A stretch of 64,000 bases of DNA, taken from positions 18,839-82,838 of the forward strand of contig DATFWY010000003.1 of NCBI GenBank assembly GCA_035258805.1, read 5' to 3'. Positions 5,814-63,090 of this stretch are shown in pieces. The notes under the pieces were generated by a model. The model was not told the origin of the DNA and did not search any database. It saw nothing but the letters and a program-made list of their open reading frames with translations. The position numbers and the translations under genes are program-made. The DNA comes from Blastocatellia bacterium. Its GTDB lineage: Bacteria > Acidobacteriota > Blastocatellia > UBA7656. How positions within the stretch are numbered: position 1 is the stretch's first letter; each line of letters begins with the position of its first letter.

Positions 5814-6839
5814 CTAGCTTTTCTTTGCTGGGGAAGAGAGCAGCGTGTTCAGCAGATCCATCGGCAGATTTCCGGTGATCTTCACATCTGCTTCAGAGTT
5901 CACAATGCTGACGGTCTTGAGCGCCTCTGCTATCGCTCCCATCTTTGCATCGCCGCCTAAGACGACAAGCCCCTTCACCATTGATAGCAGTCCGTTGAGC
6001 TTGTCAGCGATCGCCTTAGCGTGTTCAGCATTGTCGCTACGGAGAGTAGCGTTGAGATCAATACCAGAAGCGACGTCGATCGTTCCAAATACGAGGGAGA
6101 TAGAAGATATCTCCGGAAGAGGAAAATCGTTTGTCTTGAACCCATCGGTCATCCTGGGTGTCATCATCAGAGCGAAACGGACTGCAGCACTCGGATTCTG
6201 AGAAAGAGGCTCTGCAAGTCTGGAGTTTTGCGCCACGCTTTGAGCATCACCTGCTTTTACGTCTACAGAGGAACGAACTGACTTAGCGCTGCCGACGACC
6301 GCGGTGCTGGAATCATAAAAGACAAAGGATGTTTCATTGTTGATGGAGCGTTTAATGTCGCTCGCGCCTTGCTGTTTGTCGGACGGCTTCGTGGATACGT
6401 TCGCCTCCGGTTTCGAAGTAGCCTTATAGATGTCGAAGCCTTTGTATTTTTCCGATGTAAGGGTAATCCTGGGGTTTGTTCTCAGGCGCGCCAGCAAATC
6501 GCTCTGGTCGAATGCTCCGTTGATCGCAACTGTAGGCTCGTTGAGACCGGCTGGAGGAAAAACCAACGCCACCGTATGCAGGTCGCTCAACTTCAGACCG
6601 AGATCCGTCATTTCGGACTGTGCCTTATCGATGGCGTGCTTCACATCATTCTGAGCATTGAGAACCGTCCAAAGGCTGCTGTTTGCAATCTTCTGAAAAT
6701 CGATCAAAGCCACCGCCGTACCGTCAGGCAGAACGTCGAGCAGGGAGCCGGCAGGTTTTGTTACGCCGGCAGAACCGAGTTTCAGGCTCGCGCACAGGAT
6801 GATAATTGCCAGAGTAGTTATGGATGCTATTTTCTTCAT
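5814..6839 (-). CDS. Secreted hypothetical protein
   Basis: Signal peptide MKKIASITTLAIIILCASLKLGSAG starts at ATG 6839, with GGAAGGA 5 nt upstream. I recognise no domain. Confidence 0.5.
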   Translation of the reverse strand: MKKIASITTLAIIILCASLKLGSAGVTKPAGSLLDVLPDGTAVALIDFQKIANSSLWTVLNAQNDVKHAIDKAQSEMTDLGLKLSDLHTVALVFPPAGLNEPTVAINGAFDQSDLLARLRTNPRITLTSEKYKGFDIYKATSKPEANVSTKPSDKQQGASDIKRSINNETSFVFYDSSTAVVGSAKSVRSSVDVKAGDAQSVAQNSRLAEPLSQNPSAAVRFALMMTPRMTDGFKTNDFPLPEISSISLVFGTIDVASGIDLNATLRSDNAEHAKAIADKLNGLLSMVKGLVVLGGDAKMGAIAEALKTVSIVNSEADVKITGNLPMDLLNTLLSSPAKKS

Positions 6840-7131
6840 AAGATCCTTCCTTGCGAGTTCATACAAACAGCCAGGTTCGAACTCATTCTAAATTATATGC
6901 CGAATCGGAACCGGATTAGAACTCAAGTTTAAGCTTCACCTCATTCTTTACGGCCGGTCTATCGATTCGTGATGAGGCCCAATTACCATCGCGGCAACAG
7001 AATACGCTATCTTGCGCTCGCCACCGCAGCCTGCTTAGAATGAACTTTCGTATGCATAAACTTGTCACCGTTATAAGATACGCACCGCGTCTCCATTCGA
7101 ATGCAGTGCTCGATCAGCCCTTCTAAGGAAA

Positions 7132-12572: not shown

Positions 12573-13646
12573 TCACAGATGTTTGCGCAGGTAATTAGCC
12601 AACAAGAAGCCGGCGTAGTATTTGTACGGCGCTCGTCCCAAAGTGTAGTGACCGCAGCGCACCAATGCCTTTTCAAACCTCACTCCGTACCGGTCGCATT
12701 CCGCAAACAATAGACGGGATAGCTCGGGCGTAAAAGATAAATCGTACACTGCCGATATCATCAGGCCGCGACGTTCATCTCCCGCCAGTCGATTGACATA
12801 AGAGTTGGGACTGATTGCGAGGAACGCCTTTCTCACGTCCTCCCTACCAACCTCGGTTTCGAGACCCTTCCTGACGTGCGCAGTGGTTAACCCATCCCAG
12901 ACTACGTCTCCAAAGTAGCTCGATACATGATAGTAAACTCCGACGTTAATTTTTGGCTCGTGTATGAAGGTCAGAAATGCGATGCACGAGCCCAGGCTAG
13001 TCCCAACTATTCCGATCCGGTCATAACCCTGATCTGCCAACCAGTGGATTGCCGCTCTGGTATCAAGCACAGCCTGGCGGTTGGCCTGAAGCGTTCGGCC
13101 GATATTTGCGCTCACCATGAAATCTGCGCGTTCAAATCCAAGAAGCATCCGACGATCGTGATAAGGCAGACTCAGCCGAAGCGCTGCAATGCCCGTTCGA
13201 TTGAGGAAACCACATAAGGCGACGTGCTCATGTGCCTTGGCATTCCAGTGAGGCAGCACTACGACTGCCCGGCCCCGTGACCGCTGGATTTCATCCTGGC
13301 GCGAACTCTTTGCGGATCCACCGTTATTTTGCACCGGAAAGTAACGGGCATACGCGGTGTTGTTCTCAACAAAAGGGGTCTTTACTGCGCTCTCGAACGA
13401 AAGCCAGCCCTCCTCGAATCGAAAGCCAGGAACCCGGTCCCATGAAAAAAACTGATGGCTGTTTGATATCGCTTGCTGGTTGAACTTGAAGATTGCGTTG
13501 CGGCTGTCGGCTGTACCTGCACTTTCGTCAGGGATCAGATTTTTAGGATCGAGCGAATCTATTCCCCATTCAAATGGTCTTACTACTCGATTATTGTCTC
13601 TTCGAGAGAGCTTCCGCTCCCAGGTGTGAATGACTTGTTTTAGCAT
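12573..13646 (-). CDS. Alpha/beta-hydrolase fold protein
   Basis: The nucleophile elbow GTSLGS is followed by CIAFLTFIHEP, with an HW..AKAHEH region upstream. Total length is 357 aa. Confidence 0.6.
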   Translation of the reverse strand: MLKQVIHTWERKLSRRDNNRVVRPFEWGIDSLDPKNLIPDESAGTADSRNAIFKFNQQAISNSHQFFSWDRVPGFRFEEGWLSFESAVKTPFVENNTAYARYFPVQNNGGSAKSSRQDEIQRSRGRAVVVLPHWNAKAHEHVALCGFLNRTGIAALRLSLPYHDRRMLLGFERADFMVSANIGRTLQANRQAVLDTRAAIHWLADQGYDRIGIVGTSLGSCIAFLTFIHEPKINVGVYYHVSSYFGDVVWDGLTTAHVRKGLETEVGREDVRKAFLAISPNSYVNRLAGDERRGLMISAVYDLSFTPELSRLLFAECDRYGVRFEKALVRCGHYTLGRAPYKYYAGFLLANYLRKHL

Positions 13647-14340
13647 CTTAAAGTGAGTTCCATTAGGCCAACCGTGAGGTCATTCTAATGGAGAGCTGAG
13701 ATGTTGCTCAAGCGAGGTACTGACACGGCTCCGAGTCTGTATGTAAATCAGGCGTTCCACAGTGTCGAGATTTGAATCGAGAAGGCCTCGCTCGCATAAA
13801 AATGAAACGATTGCTGTTGCTTTCCGTCTATGATTACAGGGGGTCTGATGAGTACACCAGGACGAAAAGAACCAGACGGATGCGATGGCAATCCGCTGGC
13901 GGTGTGTGTAAATGACTGCCAACTCGACTATGGACAGCCGAGCTCTCAATTAGTGCAGGTCTGCTTTCAGGTACACTGCGCTTTTGCAGAGATGCGTTGG
14001 GGGCGGTCAGCGGCAATATCTTTTGAGCTCTCCCAAACCGTATCAGATGAGAACGTGCCTAAGCACCAACAATAGGCGAGGCGGTTCTTCTGGCGGATCA
14101 ATCTTGTACAGATCAACCTAAAAACCACCTACAGATGAGTCTGTGTGTGAGAATCCTGGATCCGCCATTGGCTGCGGCTACGGTGGTATCAGGACCTCTG
14201 AGGGTCGCTGTCTGTCGCATACAACCGTCTTTTTGCCAAAAATACCATTAGCCAGCTACACCGACGATGGACTGATCTGGCAAAATATGAAACTCGTTCC
14301 GATCCGGAATTAGTTTTTCAAGGATAGATGGGAGACCGCT

Positions 14341-14604
14341 ATGAACCTTCCAGACGAATGCGTCCTTGTTCAAAGGGAATCGCCTTATCAATACACTCAG
14401 GACGGGCTCGAGCTTAGAGAGCTGGCCCATCAGTCGCTCATTCCGCTCTTCATCGAGTTCATGAACCGAGGTTATAGCCCTTATCAAATCTGTTCAGTGA
14501 TACATGACGGCGTAGCCGAAATGAGCCGCGAGATTATCGGCGTTCACAGGACGGCAGGTAAGGAAGCCGCGGACAAGATGTTGCAAGATAAGTTAAAACC
14601 GTAA
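14341..14604 (+). CDS. Hypothetical small protein (87 aa)
   Basis: An ORF with GGGAG 8 nt upstream of ATG. No motif recognised. It lies in an otherwise gene-poor ~1 kb stretch. Confidence 0.3.
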   Translation: MNLPDECVLVQRESPYQYTQDGLELRELAHQSLIPLFIEFMNRGYSPYQICSVIHDGVAEMSREIIGVHRTAGKEAADKMLQDKLKP

Positions 14605-14624
14605 GCCGCTGCTCGTTGCAACAA

Positions 14625-17272: not shown

Positions 17273-18376
17273 TCAGCGAGGCTTCTTACCTGTCACCGGC
17301 TTCGCTGCTGCGTTTCCAGCGTCGGCTGCCGGTTTAGTCGGAGTAGTCGATTGCGGCGGCGGAACCGTCATCTTGACCGGTGTTGGGCCGGTCTTATTCG
17401 CTTCGATAAGTTTGGTCAGTCCTTCTTCCGAGTTGTTATTGAGAAACTTATAAAGCCCCGAAACTACGCTCATGACGGTGGTTCTTGCCTCGCTCGGTTT
17501 ATCCATCGTGAGACCCAAGTACCTCGCCCAGCAATTAACCACCGGTTCAGCTTTACTCCTAACGTCGGCAAGTGCCGTCTTTGCTTCTTCAAGTGCAGCC
17601 TTTACATCTGGCTTAGGATCGGCTGCGTTCCGATCTGCCTCAGGTATGGCATCCGCCTTTTTCTGAGCGGCGTCATACTTTTGGGCTGCAACGTTGTAAC
17701 GATCGTTGTTGATGCGCCCGCAGTGAAAGAAGTAAGCCGCGTTTGTGGGATCCAGCTCAGCAGCCTTAGTGTATTCTGCAAGTGATTTTTCGGCGTCCTT
17801 ACTGTTATCCGCGACCAGAGCCAGGGTTTGATGCAGGTAACCGAGTGTGACGTTCTTGTTGAATTTTGCCGCGTCGACGCCGGTTAATGTCTTGCCGGAT
17901 TCGAAAAGCCGAATTGCGCGCTGCGAGAGATCGGTCGTGTCTGCAGCATGAGCAAAATTGTTCTTAGCGATTTCATTAGTGCGGATTTCAACAACTACAG
18001 CCCAAATGTAGTCGAGGTTATCAGGGTCCTCTGCAAGAACTTCCTTTGCTATTCGAATCTCCCCGGCAACATCGCCCTTGTCATGGGCTTCTTTATACAT
18101 CATCCCGCGAACTCCGGGGATCCATTTGGTTTTCAAATATTGAATGTTCGTTGCATTTCCATTTGGAAACTTCTGCAAATAAGCCTTAGCCAACTCCATA
18201 GCCTTTGGATAATCTTTGGCCTGGTTAGCATCAAACCATGCTTTGTACGCCGCAGCTTCTTCAGCCGACGGATCCTGAACACTCGGTCCAGTGACATTTG
18301 TTCTTGCCGACGCGAGGGGCACATACATCGACATCAACAGCATTAACGCTGTTATCGTTATTATTGATCTTTTCAT
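17273..18376 (-). CDS. Secreted hypothetical protein, alpha-helical/TPR-like, with an Ala/Pro-rich C-terminus
   Basis: Signal peptide MKRSIITITALMLLMSMYVPLASA. AGGAGG lies 11 nt upstream of ATG 18376. No catalytic motif recognised. Confidence 0.5.
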   Translation of the reverse strand: MKRSIITITALMLLMSMYVPLASARTNVTGPSVQDPSAEEAAAYKAWFDANQAKDYPKAMELAKAYLQKFPNGNATNIQYLKTKWIPGVRGMMYKEAHDKGDVAGEIRIAKEVLAEDPDNLDYIWAVVVEIRTNEIAKNNFAHAADTTDLSQRAIRLFESGKTLTGVDAAKFNKNVTLGYLHQTLALVADNSKDAEKSLAEYTKAAELDPTNAAYFFHCGRINNDRYNVAAQKYDAAQKKADAIPEADRNAADPKPDVKAALEEAKTALADVRSKAEPVVNCWARYLGLTMDKPSEARTTVMSVVSGLYKFLNNNSEEGLTKLIEANKTGPTPVKMTVPPPQSTTPTKPAADAGNAAAKPVTGKKPR

Positions 18377-32133: not shown

Positions 32134-32218
32134 TCTTTGCGCCCTCGCGTCTTTGCGACTCTGCGTTACGTGAAGGTATTTCATAGCCGCCTAATCGGTC
32201 TAACGATTTCAACCCCTC

Positions 32219-35206: not shown

Positions 35207-35318
35207 CAGGGTCTGGTGAGAACTGAATCTGTGCCTTTGCGTCTTTGCGACTTAACGGCTTTGCGTTTATAGCGTCATTGTTGCCGAATACATTGACCAG
35301 CCTCCCAGCGATCACTCA

Positions 35319-38043: not shown

Positions 38044-39342
38044 TCACGCCGCGATCCCGGAACGGATGGACTTCTCGACCGCCTCGCAGAATGTATCGAT
38101 GTCGGAGAGAGTCGTGTATACGTTTGGCGTGATTCTTATTCCCTTAAACTCTTCGTGGGTGATCGGAGTGCATATGATCCGATATTTTTCCCACAGATGC
38201 GCGCCGAGCTTGATGTGATCGAGTCCGTCGACGCTAAAGTTCGCGAGACCGCAGGATTGCTGCGGATCGTAAGGAGTCAGTACTCGGACGCCTTTGATAG
38301 TCTCGAGCCGTCGCGCCCAGCGGTCTTTCAGGTAGCGCAGTCGCGCGGCTTTGCGCTCGGCGCCGATACCTTCATGAAATGTAAGTGCTTCAGAGATTGC
38401 GTTGTGATTGGCCGCCGGATGAGTTCCAATCTCTTCGAACTTGCGGATATCTTCGTCTTGCTTTTGGTCCGCTGCCATCAACGGCCAGAGCTTCCCGATC
38501 TTGGATTTTCGCACATACAAAAATCCGGTCCCGTGCGGTGCCAGCAACCACTTGTGCAAGCTTGTGCCGTAGTAGTCGCAATCCAGGTCCGAATGCTTGA
38601 ACGGAAAGTGTGCAAAGGCGTGAGCGCCGTCGACAATTACCTCAATTCCGCGCTCGCGTCCCAACTGGCATATTCGCTTGATAGGAAAAATCTGACCGGT
38701 GAGATTCGTGATATGGCATACCAAAATCACCTTGGTTTTCGGCGTGATCGCCCGCTCGAACCTTTGATATAAGTCGTCCATCGAAGGAGGCGGTACCGGG
38801 AATGAGATGGTTTTGATTTTGATTCCCTCGCGCCGTTCTCGCTGACGCCAGGACGTCAGCATTCGAGGATAATCCTGATTGGTGGTAAGCACTTCGTCGC
38901 CGGGTTTAAGGTTGAGTCCAAAGATGCAAATCTCGAGTGACTCGCTCGCATTGCGGGTAATCGCCATTTCTTCGGGGTCGCAGCCGAACGCGGCGGCCAA
39001 TCTTCTGCGGACCCCCTCGATCTCGGGTTCCAACACCTGCCACATTGTCACGGTCGGCGCTGAGTTGGAAAACTCGAGGTAACGTCGCATCGCATCCTGG
39101 ACTACTCTCGGGGAAGGGCTAACGCCGCCGTTGTTCAGGTTGATCAGTGAGCGGTCGACGGTGAACGCCTGCTGGATTTCGCGCCAGTAGTCTTCGTCAG
39201 CGGCCATCGTCTCCGGACCAATACCCGCGGCTGATCGAGACGCGGCGAGTATGCGTTCTATGCCGCCATCACGGAGAGAGGCGAGCCCCGCTACTGTCGC
39301 CGCGCTCCCGACCGATCTCAAAAAGCTTCGTCGTGTGAACAT
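38044..39342 (-). CDS. Class-V aminotransferase fold PLP enzyme (cysteine-desulfurase / isopenicillin-N-epimerase-like) with a Tat signal peptide
   Basis: The N-terminal MFTRRSFLRSVGSAATVAGLASL is a canonical twin-arginine motif. The body has a class V aminotransferase pattern (HITNLTGQIFP...DGAHAFAHFP...SLHKWLLAPHGTGFLYV), including the PLP lysine context SLHKW. Confidence 0.7.
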   Translation of the reverse strand: MFTRRSFLRSVGSAATVAGLASLRDGGIERILAASRSAAGIGPETMAADEDYWREIQQAFTVDRSLINLNNGGVSPSPRVVQDAMRRYLEFSNSAPTVTMWQVLEPEIEGVRRRLAAAFGCDPEEMAITRNASESLEICIFGLNLKPGDEVLTTNQDYPRMLTSWRQRERREGIKIKTISFPVPPPSMDDLYQRFERAITPKTKVILVCHITNLTGQIFPIKRICQLGRERGIEVIVDGAHAFAHFPFKHSDLDCDYYGTSLHKWLLAPHGTGFLYVRKSKIGKLWPLMAADQKQDEDIRKFEEIGTHPAANHNAISEALTFHEGIGAERKAARLRYLKDRWARRLETIKGVRVLTPYDPQQSCGLANFSVDGLDHIKLGAHLWEKYRIICTPITHEEFKGIRITPNVYTTLSDIDTFCEAVEKSIRSGIAA

Positions 39343-39402: not shown

Positions 39403-39510
39403 ATTACGAATTTATTCGTTATGATTCAAAATTCAACGGACCTTAATCAAAACGAATAAATTCGTTACTACGTGGAATAAATCAAAACGAATAAATTCGT
39501 TACTACGTGG
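39403..39510. repeat. Direct repeats (2.5x) of ATCAAAACGAATAAATTCGTTACTACGTGG, which contain the palindromic word ACGAATAAATTCGT
   Basis: Read directly from the sequence. It lies between the aminotransferase start and the cofE stop. The same word recurs at 49085-49320 and 55042-55110. Confidence 0.8.
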
Positions 39511-39540: not shown

Positions 39541-40293
39541 TCATCGAAACAGATCAAGCTCGGGAAGACGAATCAGCTCGCGGCCTGAGCCCTCACTCGA
39601 CTGATATTCGTATCCCCGAATAATGACGACAGGAACTTCCGCACTCTTCTTCATCACCAACTCTGCAGCCGACGCAAGCTCGTCAGCAACCGCGATTACC
39701 GTTACCCTCAAAGGATTCCCGTGCGAATCCATCTGTCCGCGATAATCGATCAGGGATGCCATTCCAGAAACTCCAAGCGCTACGTTCGCGAGACCCTCGC
39801 GCCAGGGGCGGCCGAACGTGTCTGAGATGATCACGGCGATGCTAACACCAAAGGCAGCTTCCAGGGCCGATCGAATCAAACGTGCCGATGAATCGGGGTC
39901 TTTGGGCAGGAGCGTAACGATACCATCACCAACGTTCGATGTATCGACACCAGCGTTCGCACAAATGAATCCATGTTCCGTTTCTGAAATCAGGATCCCG
40001 CGTTCCATACGCACAATGCGCTTCGATTCGCTCAGCACGACTTCGACCACTCGGGGATCCTTATCGTAGGCTTTGGCCCACTCGAGAGCGCGATCGCCCG
40101 GTTCAATTGATTCGAGCCTGACCAGGCGACCTTCGGCCTTCGATACGATCTTCTGAGCAACGACCAGAACATCATTATTCGGGAGTTCGATTACAGAGTT
40201 GCGTAAGGCGCTGATGATCAGAGCTCCGACATCGTCCCCACTTTTGACCTCAGGAATCCCAGAGACTCCGATTATTTCAATTTTGTTGGTCAC
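39541..40293 (-). CDS. cofE: Coenzyme F420-0:L-glutamate ligase
   Basis: 250 aa. SGDDVGALI...NDVLVVAQKIVSKAEGRLV matches the CofE motif DGDVLVVTQKIVSKAEGR. The start is GTG at 40293. Confidence 0.75.
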   Translation of the reverse strand: MTNKIEIIGVSGIPEVKSGDDVGALIISALRNSVIELPNNDVLVVAQKIVSKAEGRLVRLESIEPGDRALEWAKAYDKDPRVVEVVLSESKRIVRMERGILISETEHGFICANAGVDTSNVGDGIVTLLPKDPDSSARLIRSALEAAFGVSIAVIISDTFGRPWREGLANVALGVSGMASLIDYRGQMDSHGNPLRVTVIAVADELASAAELVMKKSAEVPVVIIRGYEYQSSEGSGRELIRLPELDLFR

Positions 40294-40416
40294 TCTCCGC
40301 GCCTCTGCGTCTTTGCGTCTTTGCGTCTTTGCGTTTAAAAAAGGCCTTACAACACGCCAAAATTATCTAACGACCACAAAATTATCTACCGACAAAATTC
40401 TCTAGCGACGACAAAA
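40294..40416. promoter_or_regulatory. cofC-cofE intergenic repeat array: (TCTTTGCG)x4, then four direct ~19-bp repeats ACAAAATTATCTAMCG
   Basis: Read directly from the sequence. It lies immediately upstream of cofE on its coding strand. TCTTTGCG words also occur at 32140, 35230 and 62950. Confidence 0.6.
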
Positions 40417-41076
40417 TTATCTAACGCCAACCTTCGTTTCCCAATATCGACTCTCCCTCAACACTTCAAACGCTCGAGTACTTCGCCCATGTTCAACCAG
40501 CAGCTCGACGTCGGCCGGTTCGTCGATGTCCAGTGCGATACGAACCTTATCTACGATCAGACACTCCACACCAACGCGCGCCGCCTCCTGTCTGTGAAGA
40601 GCAAGCGAGTTGGGCCCAAAACGAGATGGGAATAGAGCCGGTGGCGTGCGGATAATTGCATTGGTTCCGGTTCCTTCACGTGAGGGAACGAGAAGAGCAC
40701 CCGGGCACTCCAGCTCGAGAGACATGAGCGCGTCGATGTCCTCGGCCCTGACGAGCGGCAGGTCGGCTGGAAGTCGCATGACAGATTGGAAGCCTCGTTC
40801 GCTCAGCGCCCGTGAAGCCCAATCGATCGAAGCACTCTCAGATACCTGTGACTCTTCGAGCAAAATGTCCCACCCGAGCTTGCGACCATGTTCAACAGCT
40901 GGACCAAAGCTGGTTACAAGCACTACGCGGTCGGGCTTACGAGCGCCCGCAGCGGCGCGACTGACGTCCTCGAACATAGACCACGCAAGCCTTTGTCGCT
41001 CATCTTCGGACAGCAAGCCGGCAAGACGTGTCTTCGCGTGTGTGAGATCTTTGACCGGGATCAGAAGCGCTTTCAT
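40417..41076 (-). CDS. cofC: 2-phospho-L-lactate guanylyltransferase
   Basis: MKALLIPVKDLTHAKTRLAGLLSEDERQRLAWSMFEDV matches the CofC/FbiD N-terminus. It overlaps cofD by 4 nt (ATGA). Confidence 0.75.
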   Translation of the reverse strand: MKALLIPVKDLTHAKTRLAGLLSEDERQRLAWSMFEDVSRAAAGARKPDRVVLVTSFGPAVEHGRKLGWDILLEESQVSESASIDWASRALSERGFQSVMRLPADLPLVRAEDIDALMSLELECPGALLVPSREGTGTNAIIRTPPALFPSRFGPNSLALHRQEAARVGVECLIVDKVRIALDIDEPADVELLVEHGRSTRAFEVLRESRYWETKVGVR

Positions 41077-42002
41077 GAGAAGGCCGCCTCGATCACTGCT
41101 CGGGCGAGCATCGCTTTCTGTTCCGTGGTGCCCATTATCGTATTGGTCGTTATCACTCGAGTTCCGTTCGCTTCGATCTCGCCCTTCAATTCAGCATCCA
41201 TTGTATCGAGTACGAAGATATCCAGGAAATCATTATAGATTCTGGCAACCGCGCTCGCGGAAACCTCGTGACCCTGATCACGAAGCATATCAGCCGCAGG
41301 ACCTTTCAGCGCTTTCCCCCCAACGATAGGTGTGATCCCGATTATCGTGGCGTTTGTTTCACGAAGCGCATCTCGTAAGCCAGGCACAGACAGGATTGGC
41401 CCGATGCTTATGAAAGGATTGCTGGGACATACTATTACCAGATCGGCATCGACGATCGCGGTTACGACTCCAGGGGCCGGCGTCGCGAGCTCGATGTTTT
41501 CATAACAAAGACTTAGCACTCGCGGCTCGCATCTTCGACGCACGAAGTACTCCTGCAAATGCATCTCGCCTTCGACAGTGGTGATCCGCGTAGGCGTATA
41601 CGAGTTGGTCATCGGAAGAATGGATGACTCAACACCGAGAAATCGGCGAATAGAGTCGGTGACTTCGCTCAAAGAAATTCCCTGGCGCAATTGATTTGTT
41701 CGGAAAATGTGGGTAGCGAGATCCCGATCGCCGAGGTTGAACCACGCGTCGCCGTAATAGCTCTTGAGTCTCTGGAGGCATTCAAACGTGTCGCCGCTCA
41801 GTCCCCAACCAGTCGCGGGATTTATAACTCCACCAAGTGTATAGGTTACTGTGTCGATATCAGGGCAAATACGAAGGCCGAATAATTCGATGTCATCGCC
41901 GGTATTGGCAATGACAGTGATATCTTTGGGCGGTAACACGGACACGAGCCCAAGCAGAAACTTCGAAGCTCCGATTCCGCCCGCGAGTGCTGTGATCCTC
42001 AT
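41073..42002 (-). CDS. cofD: 2-phospho-L-lactate transferase (LPPG:FO transferase)
   Basis: ALAGGIGASKFLLGL...ITVIANTGDDIELFGLRICPDIDTVTYTLGG is the canonical CofD/FbiA N-terminus. Confidence 0.8.
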   Translation of the reverse strand: MRITALAGGIGASKFLLGLVSVLPPKDITVIANTGDDIELFGLRICPDIDTVTYTLGGVINPATGWGLSGDTFECLQRLKSYYGDAWFNLGDRDLATHIFRTNQLRQGISLSEVTDSIRRFLGVESSILPMTNSYTPTRITTVEGEMHLQEYFVRRRCEPRVLSLCYENIELATPAPGVVTAIVDADLVIVCPSNPFISIGPILSVPGLRDALRETNATIIGITPIVGGKALKGPAADMLRDQGHEVSASAVARIYNDFLDIFVLDTMDAELKGEIEANGTRVITTNTIMGTTEQKAMLARAVIEAAFS

Positions 42003-42094
42003 AACGTTTGGCGAGACATTCTTACGTCCCTCGCTCGCAAGAATTAATGGTTGGAGACTTGTGATTGCAACAAGAGCTTGCGTGAGGCATGTGG

Positions 42095-42784
42095 TTATAA
42101 TCCTATTACTCGATAGCGTGCGGTTTTGATTTTGTATCGGCGATTGATGCCGATTGCGAAAACAGTCATTCGTTCGAGGGTGCGTGCGCTGTAGAGAGTT
42201 CCGGCATCGACTGGTCTCAATCCTTCGATGAATCCTAATGATTCCATCACACGAACCTTAGCATCTTTGGAATCGCTGGCTACAAATGAATCGCAATCCA
42301 GCGGTTCATTAATTTCGGCAAGGAGGTGAGCCGGCTCGGTCTTGAAAGCGGCAACTAATGGAATAGTTTCGGGAAGTCTCGCTTTAAGATGCTCGCTCGC
42401 GGAACCTTCAGACAATTCCACGTAACGCACCCGGCCCTGCTCAAACGATACCGGCACGGTTATATCGATCAAAATAGAACCCTCGCGAAAGTCAGAACTG
42501 TGGGCATCGACGGTTGAAGCCGCGTGAGCAAAAGGGACTGTCAAAAGTACAAAGTCGGATGCAGCGATGACCTCTCGGTTTTCGCCGGATCCAATGACAA
42601 AAGCTATGCGCTTTTCGTTGGTTTCAAGGATTTGGTTGAGCTCGTCAGCGGCAGTCTTCGCCTTCTCCTGTGTCCGCGAGCCGATTGATACCTGCGCGCC
42701 GGCGATAGCCCATCTGAGCGCCAGGCCGCGCCCTTCTTCACCAGTGCCGCCGACAAGCCCGACTTTTAGTTGGTTTATATTCAT
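42095..42784 (-). CDS. npdG: NADPH-dependent F420 reductase
   Basis: MNINQLKVGLVGGTGEEGRGLALRWAIAGAQVSIGSRTQEKAK matches the Fno/NpdG N-terminus. Length is 229 aa. Confidence 0.7.
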   Translation of the reverse strand: MNINQLKVGLVGGTGEEGRGLALRWAIAGAQVSIGSRTQEKAKTAADELNQILETNEKRIAFVIGSGENREVIAASDFVLLTVPFAHAASTVDAHSSDFREGSILIDITVPVSFEQGRVRYVELSEGSASEHLKARLPETIPLVAAFKTEPAHLLAEINEPLDCDSFVASDSKDAKVRVMESLGFIEGLRPVDAGTLYSARTLERMTVFAIGINRRYKIKTARYRVIGL

Positions 42785-42918
42785 TGCTTAGAAATTCTCG
42801 GACTGGACTTCGGGTCAAGGTTGCCATTGGGGCGAATTCAGTGTCAACAGTGCGGCTGGGTGGAGACTGGTTCTAGCGCACAGGATCGACTCAACACCTC
42901 TATCCTGTTGAAAATTCT

Positions 42919-42948
42919 TGACTCTATGAATTGCGCGCGAGTATCATC
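42919..42948 (+). promoter_or_regulatory. Putative sigma70 promoter TTGACT-N18-TATCAT for the 43047 gene
   Basis: The hexamers were read directly. The match would end ~98 nt upstream of the ATG at 43047. Confidence 0.35.
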
Positions 42949-43046
42949 AATTTGAGGTTCCCAGTTTGACCCGTGCGTTGCTTGCGGAGCAACGTAAACT
43001 TTACCTTTTCGAACTTTGGGCGAGCCCCGTCTAACAGGAACAGTCT

Positions 43047-53540: not shown

Positions 53541-53653
53541 AAACACGCATCGTCTTAGCGTCTTAGCGAGAACCCTGGCGATCAGTGATGCACTTTGACT
53601 AATCAATTGCTGACGTCATAAATTCAACAGCATCTATTTAGTGGGAGAATCCA

Positions 53654-55042: not shown

Positions 55043-55110
55043 TAACGGATTTATTCGTTTGCGTGAGACCAACCTAATTACGAATCAGAACCAATAAATT
55101 CGTTACTACG
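55042..55110. repeat. Palindrome GTAACGGATTTATTCGTT...AATAAATTCGTTAC between convergent genes
   Basis: Read directly. It shares the ACGAATAAATTCGT word with the 39403 and 49085 elements. It is a likely bidirectional terminator. Confidence 0.7.
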
Positions 55111-59807: not shown

Positions 59808-61067
59808 TCAAGGCTGCACAAACTTTATCTTGACCGGCAACTCGACCTTGTTCCCGTCGTCGGTCTCAACGATCACCATTCCTTCAAACGCACCAGCTTT
59901 GATTGGCTTTGTCGCATCAACCGTGATTCGAATAAGGTAATTGCTTCCCTCGACCATTGTCGATTGCTGGAATTTCAGAAACGACAGGGTCGAAGACAAG
60001 TTTTTGATGTGAAACGAGCCAACTTGCTTTCTGATTCCGAATCGTTGGATCGCACTCCCAAGACTCGTCAGGTTTTGCTCGCCAAAATCGAGCTCCTTCG
60101 GCGTAACCGTAAGATTCTCAGCAGGCACCGCAACCATTAGTTGAATTCTTATCTGCTGCGGGGATGGGCTTCCCTCCACGATTAGTTGAGCGGCGCGCGA
60201 TGCAGAAGCGGCACCTTCGAGACCAATATCCAGCCAGTAATCACCGTTTGCCTCTCGCCTGAGCTTCCAGGAGCCTGGCGCATCGGGACTAAGTTTCAGG
60301 GTGCCTGCGTCAGGCGTGAGTGCTCTAATTCTCAGAGCGATTGATGCCTTTTCTCCCGGCTCAACTGTTATGGCGGGACGCGCAGTCGGCCAGACATGAA
60401 ATGCTCCAACCGGTTCGCCGTGCGCCACGTCTGCGGTTCTTATTCGTTTAACGTAAGCTGGGAGCGGTTTCACATTGGCGATGATCGACACCTTAATGAT
60501 GGGGTGCTTCGGGTCGTTTGTTTGAAGCTCATAGCTTGCTTCAAGCGGACCTGTGTGATCAGCGGTATGAAGTCTGACGAGGATTGTACCAACCTGACCA
60601 GGCTGGACGACTTTCTCGAAGTACAAGTCGCCTGGCGGGCATCAGCTTGGAGCTGCGGGCCTCGCGGCTACGGTGCGAGTGATTGACAGGTTTCCTGGAT
60701 GCCAATCGGCCGTCGCAACCCGAAAGCTGGACCCGTTTTGCCGGTTGCCCAGGAGAGAACGTTGTGAGAGTTCGAGCGGTTTTGTTCCATTGTTTCGGAC
60801 TGGAAAGTTTTGCTCGAGTTCTTCGCCGGAAAACACGTCGCCGAAGTCGCGTTTGGTGGAGCCGATCACGACGACGGGTCCGTCTGGTGACGTACGAGCA
60901 CTCACCTCCAGACCCGAGTAACAGAGCCAGCCAATCATAGCCAGGAAGCACGCGTGCAGCAGTAATCGCAGGTTCTTGCGATAAGGCTGGAATGTTTTAG
61001 TTTGATCGACTTGAGTGTGCGTCACGATGAGATGGGTATAGTAAATGCGGACGGGGTAACAAGACAA
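59808..61067 (-). CDS. DUF1573-like (Ig-like fold) membrane-anchored protein interrupted by a single in-frame TGA at 60642-60644
   Basis: ORFs 60642..61067 and 59808..60626 are in the same frame and are separated only by TGA. The upstream part has a TM helix plus DFGDVFSGEELEQNFPVRNNGTKPLEL. The downstream part reads PGQVGTILVRL...LQTNDPKHPIIKVSIIANV. The downstream ORF can only start at a TTG. Confidence 0.45.
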
Positions 61068-62853: not shown

Positions 62854-63090
62854 AGAATTTCGTCCTTTTCTTCAGCAAATAAATCAACCCTTATTATTGG
62901 CAACCGTGTACGCTAGCCGCACGAGCAAGGAATTTCAAGGTGAGAACTGCTTAGCGACTTTGCGATTTTGCGTCTTTGCGTGAGATTGACGAACTGGTTT
63001 GCAACTTATTCCACATCAACATTGCTTGAGCCGAGCTACGCCCGGTGATAACATCGCGCGCGCTCAACACAACGCTTCGGAGCAAATAAA

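Follow-up and report, generated by a model that had tools for sequence, protein, structure and literature searches.

A late F420 biosynthesis operon headed by fno in a soil Blastocatellia bacterium, with FO most likely supplied by CofG and CofH encoded outside the analysed window

Can a locus that carries the late genes of F420 biosynthesis without any gene for making the deazaflavin FO, on which these late enzymes act, belong to a complete F420 pathway, and where would its FO come from? This question is raised by a stretch of 64,000 nt (the window in the following, always meant at its full length) from an uncultured soil bacterium of the Blastocatellia (Acidobacteriota; Blastocatellia; UBA7656), taken from contig DATFWY010000003.1 of assembly GCA_035258805.1 (positions 18,839 to 82,838, forward strand). 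Our analysis points to a late F420 pathway that is combined with an NADPH-linked recharging enzyme in one operon, and we consider it very probable that this is the role of the locus, with FO most likely made by CofG and CofH encoded outside the window. The interval 39541-42784 contains exactly four open reading frames (ORFs), all of them on the minus strand:

42784..42095, minus strand: fno (npdG), 229 aa, NADPH-dependent F420 reductase, first gene of the putative operon.
42002..41073, minus strand: cofD, 309 aa, predicted transferase that links FO with the activated C3 acid (2-phospho-L-lactate or enolpyruvyl).
41076..40417, minus strand: cofC, 219 aa, guanylyltransferase predicted to activate the C3 acid, with a 4-nt overlap between its start and the cofD stop.
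40293..39541, minus strand: cofE, 250 aa, GTG start, stand-alone F420-0:gamma-glutamyl ligase.

A preliminary description of this DNA had named the four co-directional genes Fno, CofD, CofC and CofE and had tied that naming to family thresholds. The names hold, since all four proteins exceed the cut-offs of curated NCBIfam equivalog models, which we used together with profile coverage as the standard for gene assignment. Fno reaches 184.9 bits with TIGR01915 npdG (cut-off 149.8; profile positions 1-216 of 220) and matches PF03807 in Pfam as well; its top solved structures are the Fno enzymes of A. fulgidus (1JAX, 2.4e-27) and T. fusca (5N2I, 8e-26). CofD scores 335.4 bits with TIGR01819 (cut-off 257.45; positions 1-300 of 301), and in the PDB it matches CofD 3C3D (1.8e-64) and FbiA 6UVX (2.8e-64). 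For CofC, TIGR03552 gives 146.2 bits (cut-off 105; positions 2-195 of 196) and PF01983 gives 94.6 bits, while the order of PDB matches is headed by 7P97, a 3-phosphoglycerate (3-PG) guanylyltransferase (5e-20), ahead of FbiD 6BWG and CofC 2I5E. CofE is recognized by TIGR01916 with 289.6 bits (cut-off 180.65; positions 1-244 of 244), and the structures 2PHN, 7ULD and 2G9I are each matched at about 1e-47. The Pfam assignments agree with these identities, and all four genes are intact. The FbiB model NF009810 yields 255.6 bits with CofE, below its cut-off of 304, and is aligned only at positions 11-243 of 449; the Pfam scan of the 250-aa protein gave no match to the nitroreductase family PF00881. 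Judged by its sequence, CofE is therefore the short stand-alone form without a C-terminal nitroreductase domain and not an FbiB fusion, as had been proposed.

In the pathway that we propose, CofC would use GTP to convert a three-carbon phospho-acid into its activated form, CofD would move the activated group onto FO to give F420-0 or dehydro-F420-0, and CofE would add the gamma-glutamyl tail. Fno would exchange hydride between NADPH and F420, in vivo probably in the direction of F420 reduction, so that F420H2 could feed F420-dependent reductases encoded elsewhere. The four genes are presumably co-transcribed, and the 4-nt overlap of cofD and cofC would provide translational coupling, which fits the reported tight cooperation of both enzymes. 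FO itself would come from separate CofG and CofH proteins.

Relatives of the locus were collected by a CofD scan over one genome per GTDB species. The best matches are 22 Blastocatellia loci from metagenome-assembled genomes (MAGs), at 63-72% identity (L007-L027 and L034; the latter is labelled 'Clostridia', yet has the layout of Blastocatellia and is counted among the 22). In all of them, cofD-cofC-cofE is kept as far as the contigs extend, and in nearly all of them fno lies directly upstream of cofD. Five loci (L008-L011, L025), from the MAGs DATLWF01, CAVTUR01, DASRIZ01, JBBPIH01 and DATIFP01, keep the gene order of the window along about 20 kb, with amino-acid identities of 70-91%, the common order being S55-like peptidase, fno, cofD, cofC, cofE, aminotransferase, M20 peptidase, S58 peptidase, SSF symporter and SDR. 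A CofD protein identical to that of the window is found on seven contigs, all from soil metagenomes (ENA, JGI, Logan), with no other occurrence. The window population is represented in JGI 3300010046 and 3300010047, in ENA ERZ27257190, ERZ27257194 and ERZ27257195, and in SRR5215510, SRR5215813, SRR5262246 and SRR5262249. The locus is native to the Blastocatellia (Acidobacteriota), and the acidobacterial context noticed in the preliminary description is borne out by the gene order and the CofD identities that it shares with Blastocatellia MAGs.

Within the Blastocatellia, the genes for FO synthesis occur in two arrangements relative to this operon. Inspection of 10-kb flanks around the CofD loci revealed an adjacent layout in 7 of the 22 loci (L014, L018, L022, L024, L026, L027, L034), and probably also in L020, in which cofG and cofH belong to a divergent operon directly upstream of fno. 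The order of this operon is an FDOR (TIGR03668), a luciferase-like monooxygenase (LLM; TIGR03560), CofG, a second FDOR, CofH and a second LLM, with profile scores of 420-460 bits for CofG (TIGR03550) and about 497 bits for CofH (TIGR03551). In the separated layout, shared by the window with L008-L011 and L025, a peptidase gene stands where the divergent cofG/cofH operon sits elsewhere. The closest well-assembled of these relatives shows where the genes can be found in such a case: the 395,134-bp contig JBBPIH010000001.1 (L011), with flanks like those of the window, carries the CofH match P0033, with cofG at 111,049-112,233, cofH at 115,651-116,811 and the start of fno at about 165,052, which leaves a gap of 48 kb between cofH and fno. 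By NCBIfam, this cluster consists of an LLM (TIGR03619), an FDOR (TIGR03668), CofG (468 bits) and CofH (490 bits), and its position, projected by synteny, corresponds to about 30 kb past window coordinate 64000.

A free-standing cofG/cofH cluster is present on many soil contigs, where it is divergent from a pair of genes, x181-VWA. The same pair flanks the cofG side in the separated layout and lies about 6 kb downstream of cofE in the adjacent layout. This placement fits a translocation of the stretch from fno to the aminotransferase gene as a unit; in the simplest reading of these gene orders, the block fno-cofD-cofC-cofE-aminotransferase would have moved away from the cofG/cofH operon in this lineage. 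With cofG and cofH adjacent in some relatives and 48 kb away in L011, a missing FO synthase in the window is unremarkable.

Nevertheless, a number of results weigh against a complete pathway in this genome. Over the 64 kb, 49 ORFs reach 100 aa or more; all were run against Pfam, and there is no radical-SAM, CofG, CofH or FbiC protein, no LLM and no PNPOx-like FDOR among them; an FbiE-type reductase is also absent from the window, and tblastn with Blastocatellia CofG, CofH, LLM and FDOR proteins gave no match to it. With neither an F420-dependent enzyme nor an FbiE-type reductase in the window, the use of the cofactor and the phosphoenolpyruvate (PEP) branch of its synthesis are not demonstrable locally. 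The earlier statement on the lack of an FO synthase in the 20 kb to each side thus extends to the whole 64 kb and to about 8 kb past the right end, which are covered by contigs of the same population: this extension, made from a 243-aa gene and then from pntA, holds an amidohydrolase, a 309-aa protein, an MFS transporter, pntAA, pntAB and a partial pntB, and cofG or cofH was not found in it. Likewise, six CofH proteins (P0033 and, picked for a mix of sources like that of the window genes, P0111, P0099, P0095, P0062 and P0059) led to no contig from the samples of the window population, and a scan of JGI metagenomes with CofH P0033 gave none from samples 3300010046/3300010047 among the 80 loci listed, which is a weak result. 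Moreover, we found no published experiment showing F420 in any Blastocatellia. Two observations on the neighbourhood may be added: in other Blastocatellia, cofH has homologues of the MFS transporter and of the 309-aa protein at a distance of 2-4 kb, which is a hint only, and L009 has the same synteny from GlnA to pntB, yet no cofG/cofH within 10 kb.

The lack of an FO synthase in the 64 kb and the 8 kb beyond, and of a CofH contig from the population's samples, would also suit an FO auxotroph. Here, the lineage would have lost cofG and cofH, and fno-cofDCE would turn FO from neighbouring soil microbes into F420; this loss would then have begun with a relocation that separated the operon from the FO-synthase cluster. 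Such a supply is conceivable, as cells lose FO, which diffuses across membranes (PMC8498797). However, L011 has the same local synteny and keeps cofG and cofH on the same contig, and 7-8 of the 22 Blastocatellia loci have both genes within their 10-kb flanks. Searching a set of 5.8 billion proteins with the CofH of L027 returned thousands of candidates, public data contain CofH homologues named Blastocatellia in abundance, and NCBI names CofH in Blastocatellia MAGs. Measured against these thousands, the failed searches carry little weight, because six CofH proteins and 80 loci are a tiny fraction of the candidates. In addition, FO-synthesis genes co-occur with the genes for the conversion of FO to F420 in the majority of organisms (PMC8498797). 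Dependence on foreign FO is thus improbable, and given the relatives and the published co-occurrence, we are highly confident that this genome does encode an FO synthase. The preliminary description had left FO to be either made elsewhere or imported, which was the right pair of options, and the cofG and cofH genes of the relatives favour the first.

The free-standing cofG/cofH clusters have a peculiarity of their own. In those of many soil Blastocatellia (L087 6600-9493; L090, L098, L116, L193, L196), genes of methionine salvage, namely mtnB (TIGR03328), an ARD-type dioxygenase and mtnC (TIGR01691), are inserted between cofG and cofH. They might relate to the handling of by-products of S-adenosylmethionine, and we know of no published description of this arrangement.

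The next question is which C3 acid is attached to FO. The residues of CofC were compared with 6BWG and 7P97, taking D116, D188, D190 and S166 of M. tuberculosis FbiD (Mtb-FbiD) as reference residues with their roles from PMC8764529. The Mg-binding Asp residues align with D105 (in PADLP) and with D183 and D185 (in LDIDEP), and S157 (in RFGPNS) stands at the position of the carboxylate-binding Ser (Mtb-FbiD S166). In the CofC of Mycetohabitans rhizoxinica, the use of 3-PG hinges on Ser162, aided by His145 (Hasan et al., 2022; PMC8764529). Mutants of this enzyme with S162G/A/E/Y favoured 2-phospho-L-lactate (2-PL) and PEP, and the M. smegmatis enzyme accepted 3-PG only with both G169S and T152H (PMC8764529). 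In the alignment, the M. rhizoxinica positions H145, S162 and S165 correspond to T136, G154 and S157 of the window CofC, and the Gly at the S162 position is invariant across more than 120 CofC homologues examined, including all those of Blastocatellia.

An operon that makes 3PG-F420 from 3-phospho-D-glycerate, as in M. rhizoxinica, would account for the lack of a dehydro-F420 reductase, as there is no nitroreductase in the window, and it would agree with 7P97 as the top structural match of CofC. Yet a CofC specific for 3-PG has Ser at the S162 position, backed by His145, whereas the window protein has Gly154 and Thr136, and it was the S162G exchange, among others, that turned the M. rhizoxinica enzyme towards 2-PL and PEP. 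The window CofC is of the non-3PG type; therefore, standard F420 is predicted in spite of the 7P97 match, and we give 3PG-F420 very little chance.

For the C3 substrate of CofC this leaves two candidates, as it may be either 2-PL or PEP; in vitro assays do not distinguish between the two as in vivo substrate (PMC8764529). With 2-PL no extra step would be needed. The PEP route requires a dehydro-F420-0 reductase, which is either FbiB's C-terminal domain or a stand-alone FbiE (PMC8498797; PMC8764529), and in this operon it would have to be of the FbiE type. A nitroreductase-family gene was found neither among the 49 ORFs of the window (Pfam), nor in those Blastocatellia loci around CofD that were screened for homologues from the window, nor in the cofG/cofH clusters of relatives. 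ORFs of about 220 aa located 3' of the aminotransferase gene in relatives were considered as nitroreductase or FbiE and rejected, as they turned out to be a UptA-like membrane protein, dCTP deaminase and TrpF. Use of PEP would imply a reductase that is unlinked or of another family. To our knowledge, a kinase making 2-PL is known in no organism. As a separate observation, the TIGR03668 FDOR (Rv0121-like, a 'hypothetical equivalog') directly adjoins cofG or fno in many Blastocatellia clusters (L027 8587-9075, L087 4847-5311 and homologues), and the clusters that hold it are all without an FbiE-type nitroreductase. On a speculative note, this protein is a candidate for a biosynthetic role, for instance in the reduction of dehydro-F420-0.

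It is hardly credible that the four genes are paralogues that serve another pathway, namely a CofD-like YvcK, a CofC-like arsenosugar glycosyltransferase and a CofE-like folate glutamate ligase. Secondary matches to such families do exist (TIGR01826 44.7, TIGR04282 19.6 and TIGR04132 74.7 bits), but they are weak and remain 150-275 bits under the respective cut-offs (for CofD, the 44.7 bits with the YvcK model TIGR01826 compare with a cut-off of 196), whereas all F420 equivalog models are exceeded. Furthermore, the genes co-occur with Fno and, in relatives, with CofG, CofH and F420-dependent LLM and FDOR proteins.

That mis-assembly or mis-binning brought in the cluster from Actinobacteria, Chloroflexi or archaea, or that it is a very recent transfer, is next to impossible: the nearest CofD outside the Acidobacteriota is that of Bathyarchaeia (51-56%), before Actinobacteria (37-41%), which fits known horizontal transfer, but the content of guanine and cytosine is flat at 0.53-0.54 over the cluster and its flanks, and the same operon and neighbourhood are common to many independent Blastocatellia MAGs and metagenome contigs, so that any transfer predates the diversification of the class. 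The contig is neither an actinobacterial nor a Chloroflexi bin, the two origins on which the preliminary description had made its reading depend.

The wider CofD matches gave some further observations. Below the Blastocatellia, the next tier at 51-56% identity comprises Terriglobia, a 'Nitrospiraceae' MAG, SAR324 and Bathyarchaeia, followed at 37-42% by Methanofastidiosa, Thermococci and Solirubrobacterales; the Bathyarchaeia CofD is nearer to that of Blastocatellia than any actinobacterial CofD. Around cofD, the ORFs of the 'Nitrospiraceae' MAG (L028) are arranged as in the Bathyarchaeia loci L030-L033 and L038, and the CofD proteins resemble each other, a likeness in gene order and sequence that suggests mis-binning or a recent inter-domain transfer. 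On the SAR324 contig (L036 840-2474), one ORF of 544 aa matches CofD and CofC; either a fusion of the two or a frameshift artefact may explain this. Within the Blastocatellia, a MAG with a 7.9-Mb contig (L013 661-9858) has fno and cofD about 9 kb apart; between them lie three ORFs, each about 900 aa long, and a 174-aa ORF that has no match in NCBIfam.

Besides the coding regions, two non-coding regions of the operon deserve a closer description:

42785..43046, no strand assigned: intergenic region that divides fno from the divergent S55-like peptidase gene, putative operon promoter.
40294..40430, no strand assigned: 123-nt spacer between cofC and cofE, occupied by short direct repeats.

In the divergent region, the only sigma-70-like match is on the plus strand (42918-42947) and points towards the peptidase gene. 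The minus strand of 42785..43046 has no match to the sigma-70 consensus, and promoter and terminator scans gave counts no higher than those in shuffled sequences; the operon promoter is therefore placed by position only.

The cofC-cofE spacer holds four direct copies of TAGATAATTTTG (40358-40423) at a spacing of 16-19 nt, the first of which overlaps the cofC stop codon. This element is absent elsewhere in the window, and none of 100 shuffles reached four matches. It contains a -10-like GATAAT, and the array may be an internal promoter, a regulatory region or a binding array for cofE. In the same spacer, a tandem array of the 8-nt unit AAAGACGC (40299-40338) abuts the start codon of cofE. Similar 8-nt arrays occur in at least five intergenic spacers (32139-32162, 35231-35266, 40299-40338, 53550-53568, 62950-62980), all in one strand orientation, and the unit has 12 matches vs 0.84 expected. 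Tandem Repeats Finder listed 39 rows of short repeats in the window, many of them intergenic.

A third element, the 14-bp palindrome ACGAATWWATTCGT, is present in three copies in the spacer between cofE and the aminotransferase gene (39406-39502), and two of these belong to an exact 33-nt direct repeat with a spacing of 35 nt. Further copies are found in intergenic regions between convergent genes, namely two with a single mismatch at 55045-55103 and two exact ones on a Blastocatellia contig that is unrelated (L090/L091 555-619). These palindromes may be operator sites or a small dispersed element resembling repetitive extragenic palindromes.

Downstream of cofE, the block shared among relatives ends with one more gene:

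38044..39342, minus strand: class-V pyridoxal-phosphate enzyme resembling PvdN (PF00266), with a signal for twin-arginine translocation (Tat); N-terminus MFTRRSFLRS.

Of the 20 informative Blastocatellia loci, 16 have this gene directly after cofE, including loci whose outer flanks are different, and its product is conserved at 78-91% identity, above the 60-80% of the Cof proteins. The gap to cofE measures 198 nt in the window, including the three palindromes, and 13-23 nt in some relatives. With NF051467 (PvdN) the protein scores 172 bits, far under the cut-off of 650, and because of its Tat signal it is expected to be periplasmic. A functional link to the F420 pathway was considered and rejected as unproven in view of the predicted location, the low PvdN score and the 198-nt spacer with its palindromes; the gene order would tie the aminotransferase to the operon by position only. 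We know of no link between PvdN-like aminotransferases and F420.

Elsewhere in the window, several ORFs of 141-367 aa are without a Pfam match at 1e-4, among them those at 5814-6866, 12573-13646, 17273-18376 and 59808-61067. A stretch of 1 kb at 13647-14624 contains neither an ORF of at least 100 aa nor an Rfam match, and Rfam gave no RNA family in the window as a whole.

With regard to known systems, the finding is an ordinary one: the Blastocatellia locus adds to acidobacterial F420 predictions that already exist. The novelty implied by the preliminary description was overstated, since the 2021 review by Grinter and Greening lists Acidobacteria among the phyla whose genomes encode the F420 pathway, and stand-alone CofE, like separate CofG and CofH, has been described for archaea and some bacteria (PMC8498797). 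As cited in that review, the F420 gene sets of Acidobacteria were predicted by Ney et al. (2017) and related genome studies, which, so far as the review presents them, concern the same phylum and are likewise predictions from genomes. We found no paper on the operon layout in Blastocatellia, on its adjacent and separated arrangements or on a biochemical confirmation. What is gained is one more uncultured soil acidobacterium among the predicted F420 producers and, as a small descriptive addition, two operon layouts within the Blastocatellia, with the FO-synthase genes adjacent or moved away; the understanding of the pathway is unchanged. For annotation and for surveys of F420 in soil, it follows that the lack of cofG and cofH near cofCDE does not mean that they are absent from the genome.

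Of the characterised systems, the 3PG-F420 pathway of M. rhizoxinica (Mycetohabitans/Paraburkholderia) shares with our locus the Gram-negative host, the stand-alone CofE, Fno as the sole local F420 reductase and a pathway without need of a nitroreductase, and its CofC (7P97) is the closest solved structure to ours. It differs in the defining feature, as the specificity residue Ser162 is Gly in the window CofC. The PEP route of mycobacteria and Thermomicrobium proceeds via FbiD and FbiA, and then via FbiB with its C-terminal nitroreductase domain or a stand-alone FbiE. Here, the likeness lies in the enzymes of the first two steps: Mtb-FbiD G163 and M. smegmatis T152 correspond to Gly and Thr in the window CofC, and the window CofD matches FbiA 6UVX as well as CofD 3C3D. 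In contrast, neither the window nor the clusters of relatives that were screened hold an FbiB fusion or a nitroreductase-family gene.

A third comparison is with the split pathway of archaea such as Methanocaldococcus, Methanosarcina and Archaeoglobus. Our locus differs from it in its bacterial host and in having fno at the head of the biosynthetic operon, the cluster of relatives has LLM and FDOR proteins of families named for mycobacterial proteins (TIGR03560, TIGR03619, TIGR03668), and the use of 2-PL is only a candidate for the window CofC. In common are the unfused set of enzymes, with a CofE of about 250 aa without a nitroreductase domain, which is the sole form in the loci examined, including those of Solirubrobacterales, and, in relatives, CofG and CofH as separate proteins instead of an FbiC fusion. 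The nearest CofD from outside the phylum is archaeal (Bathyarchaeia).

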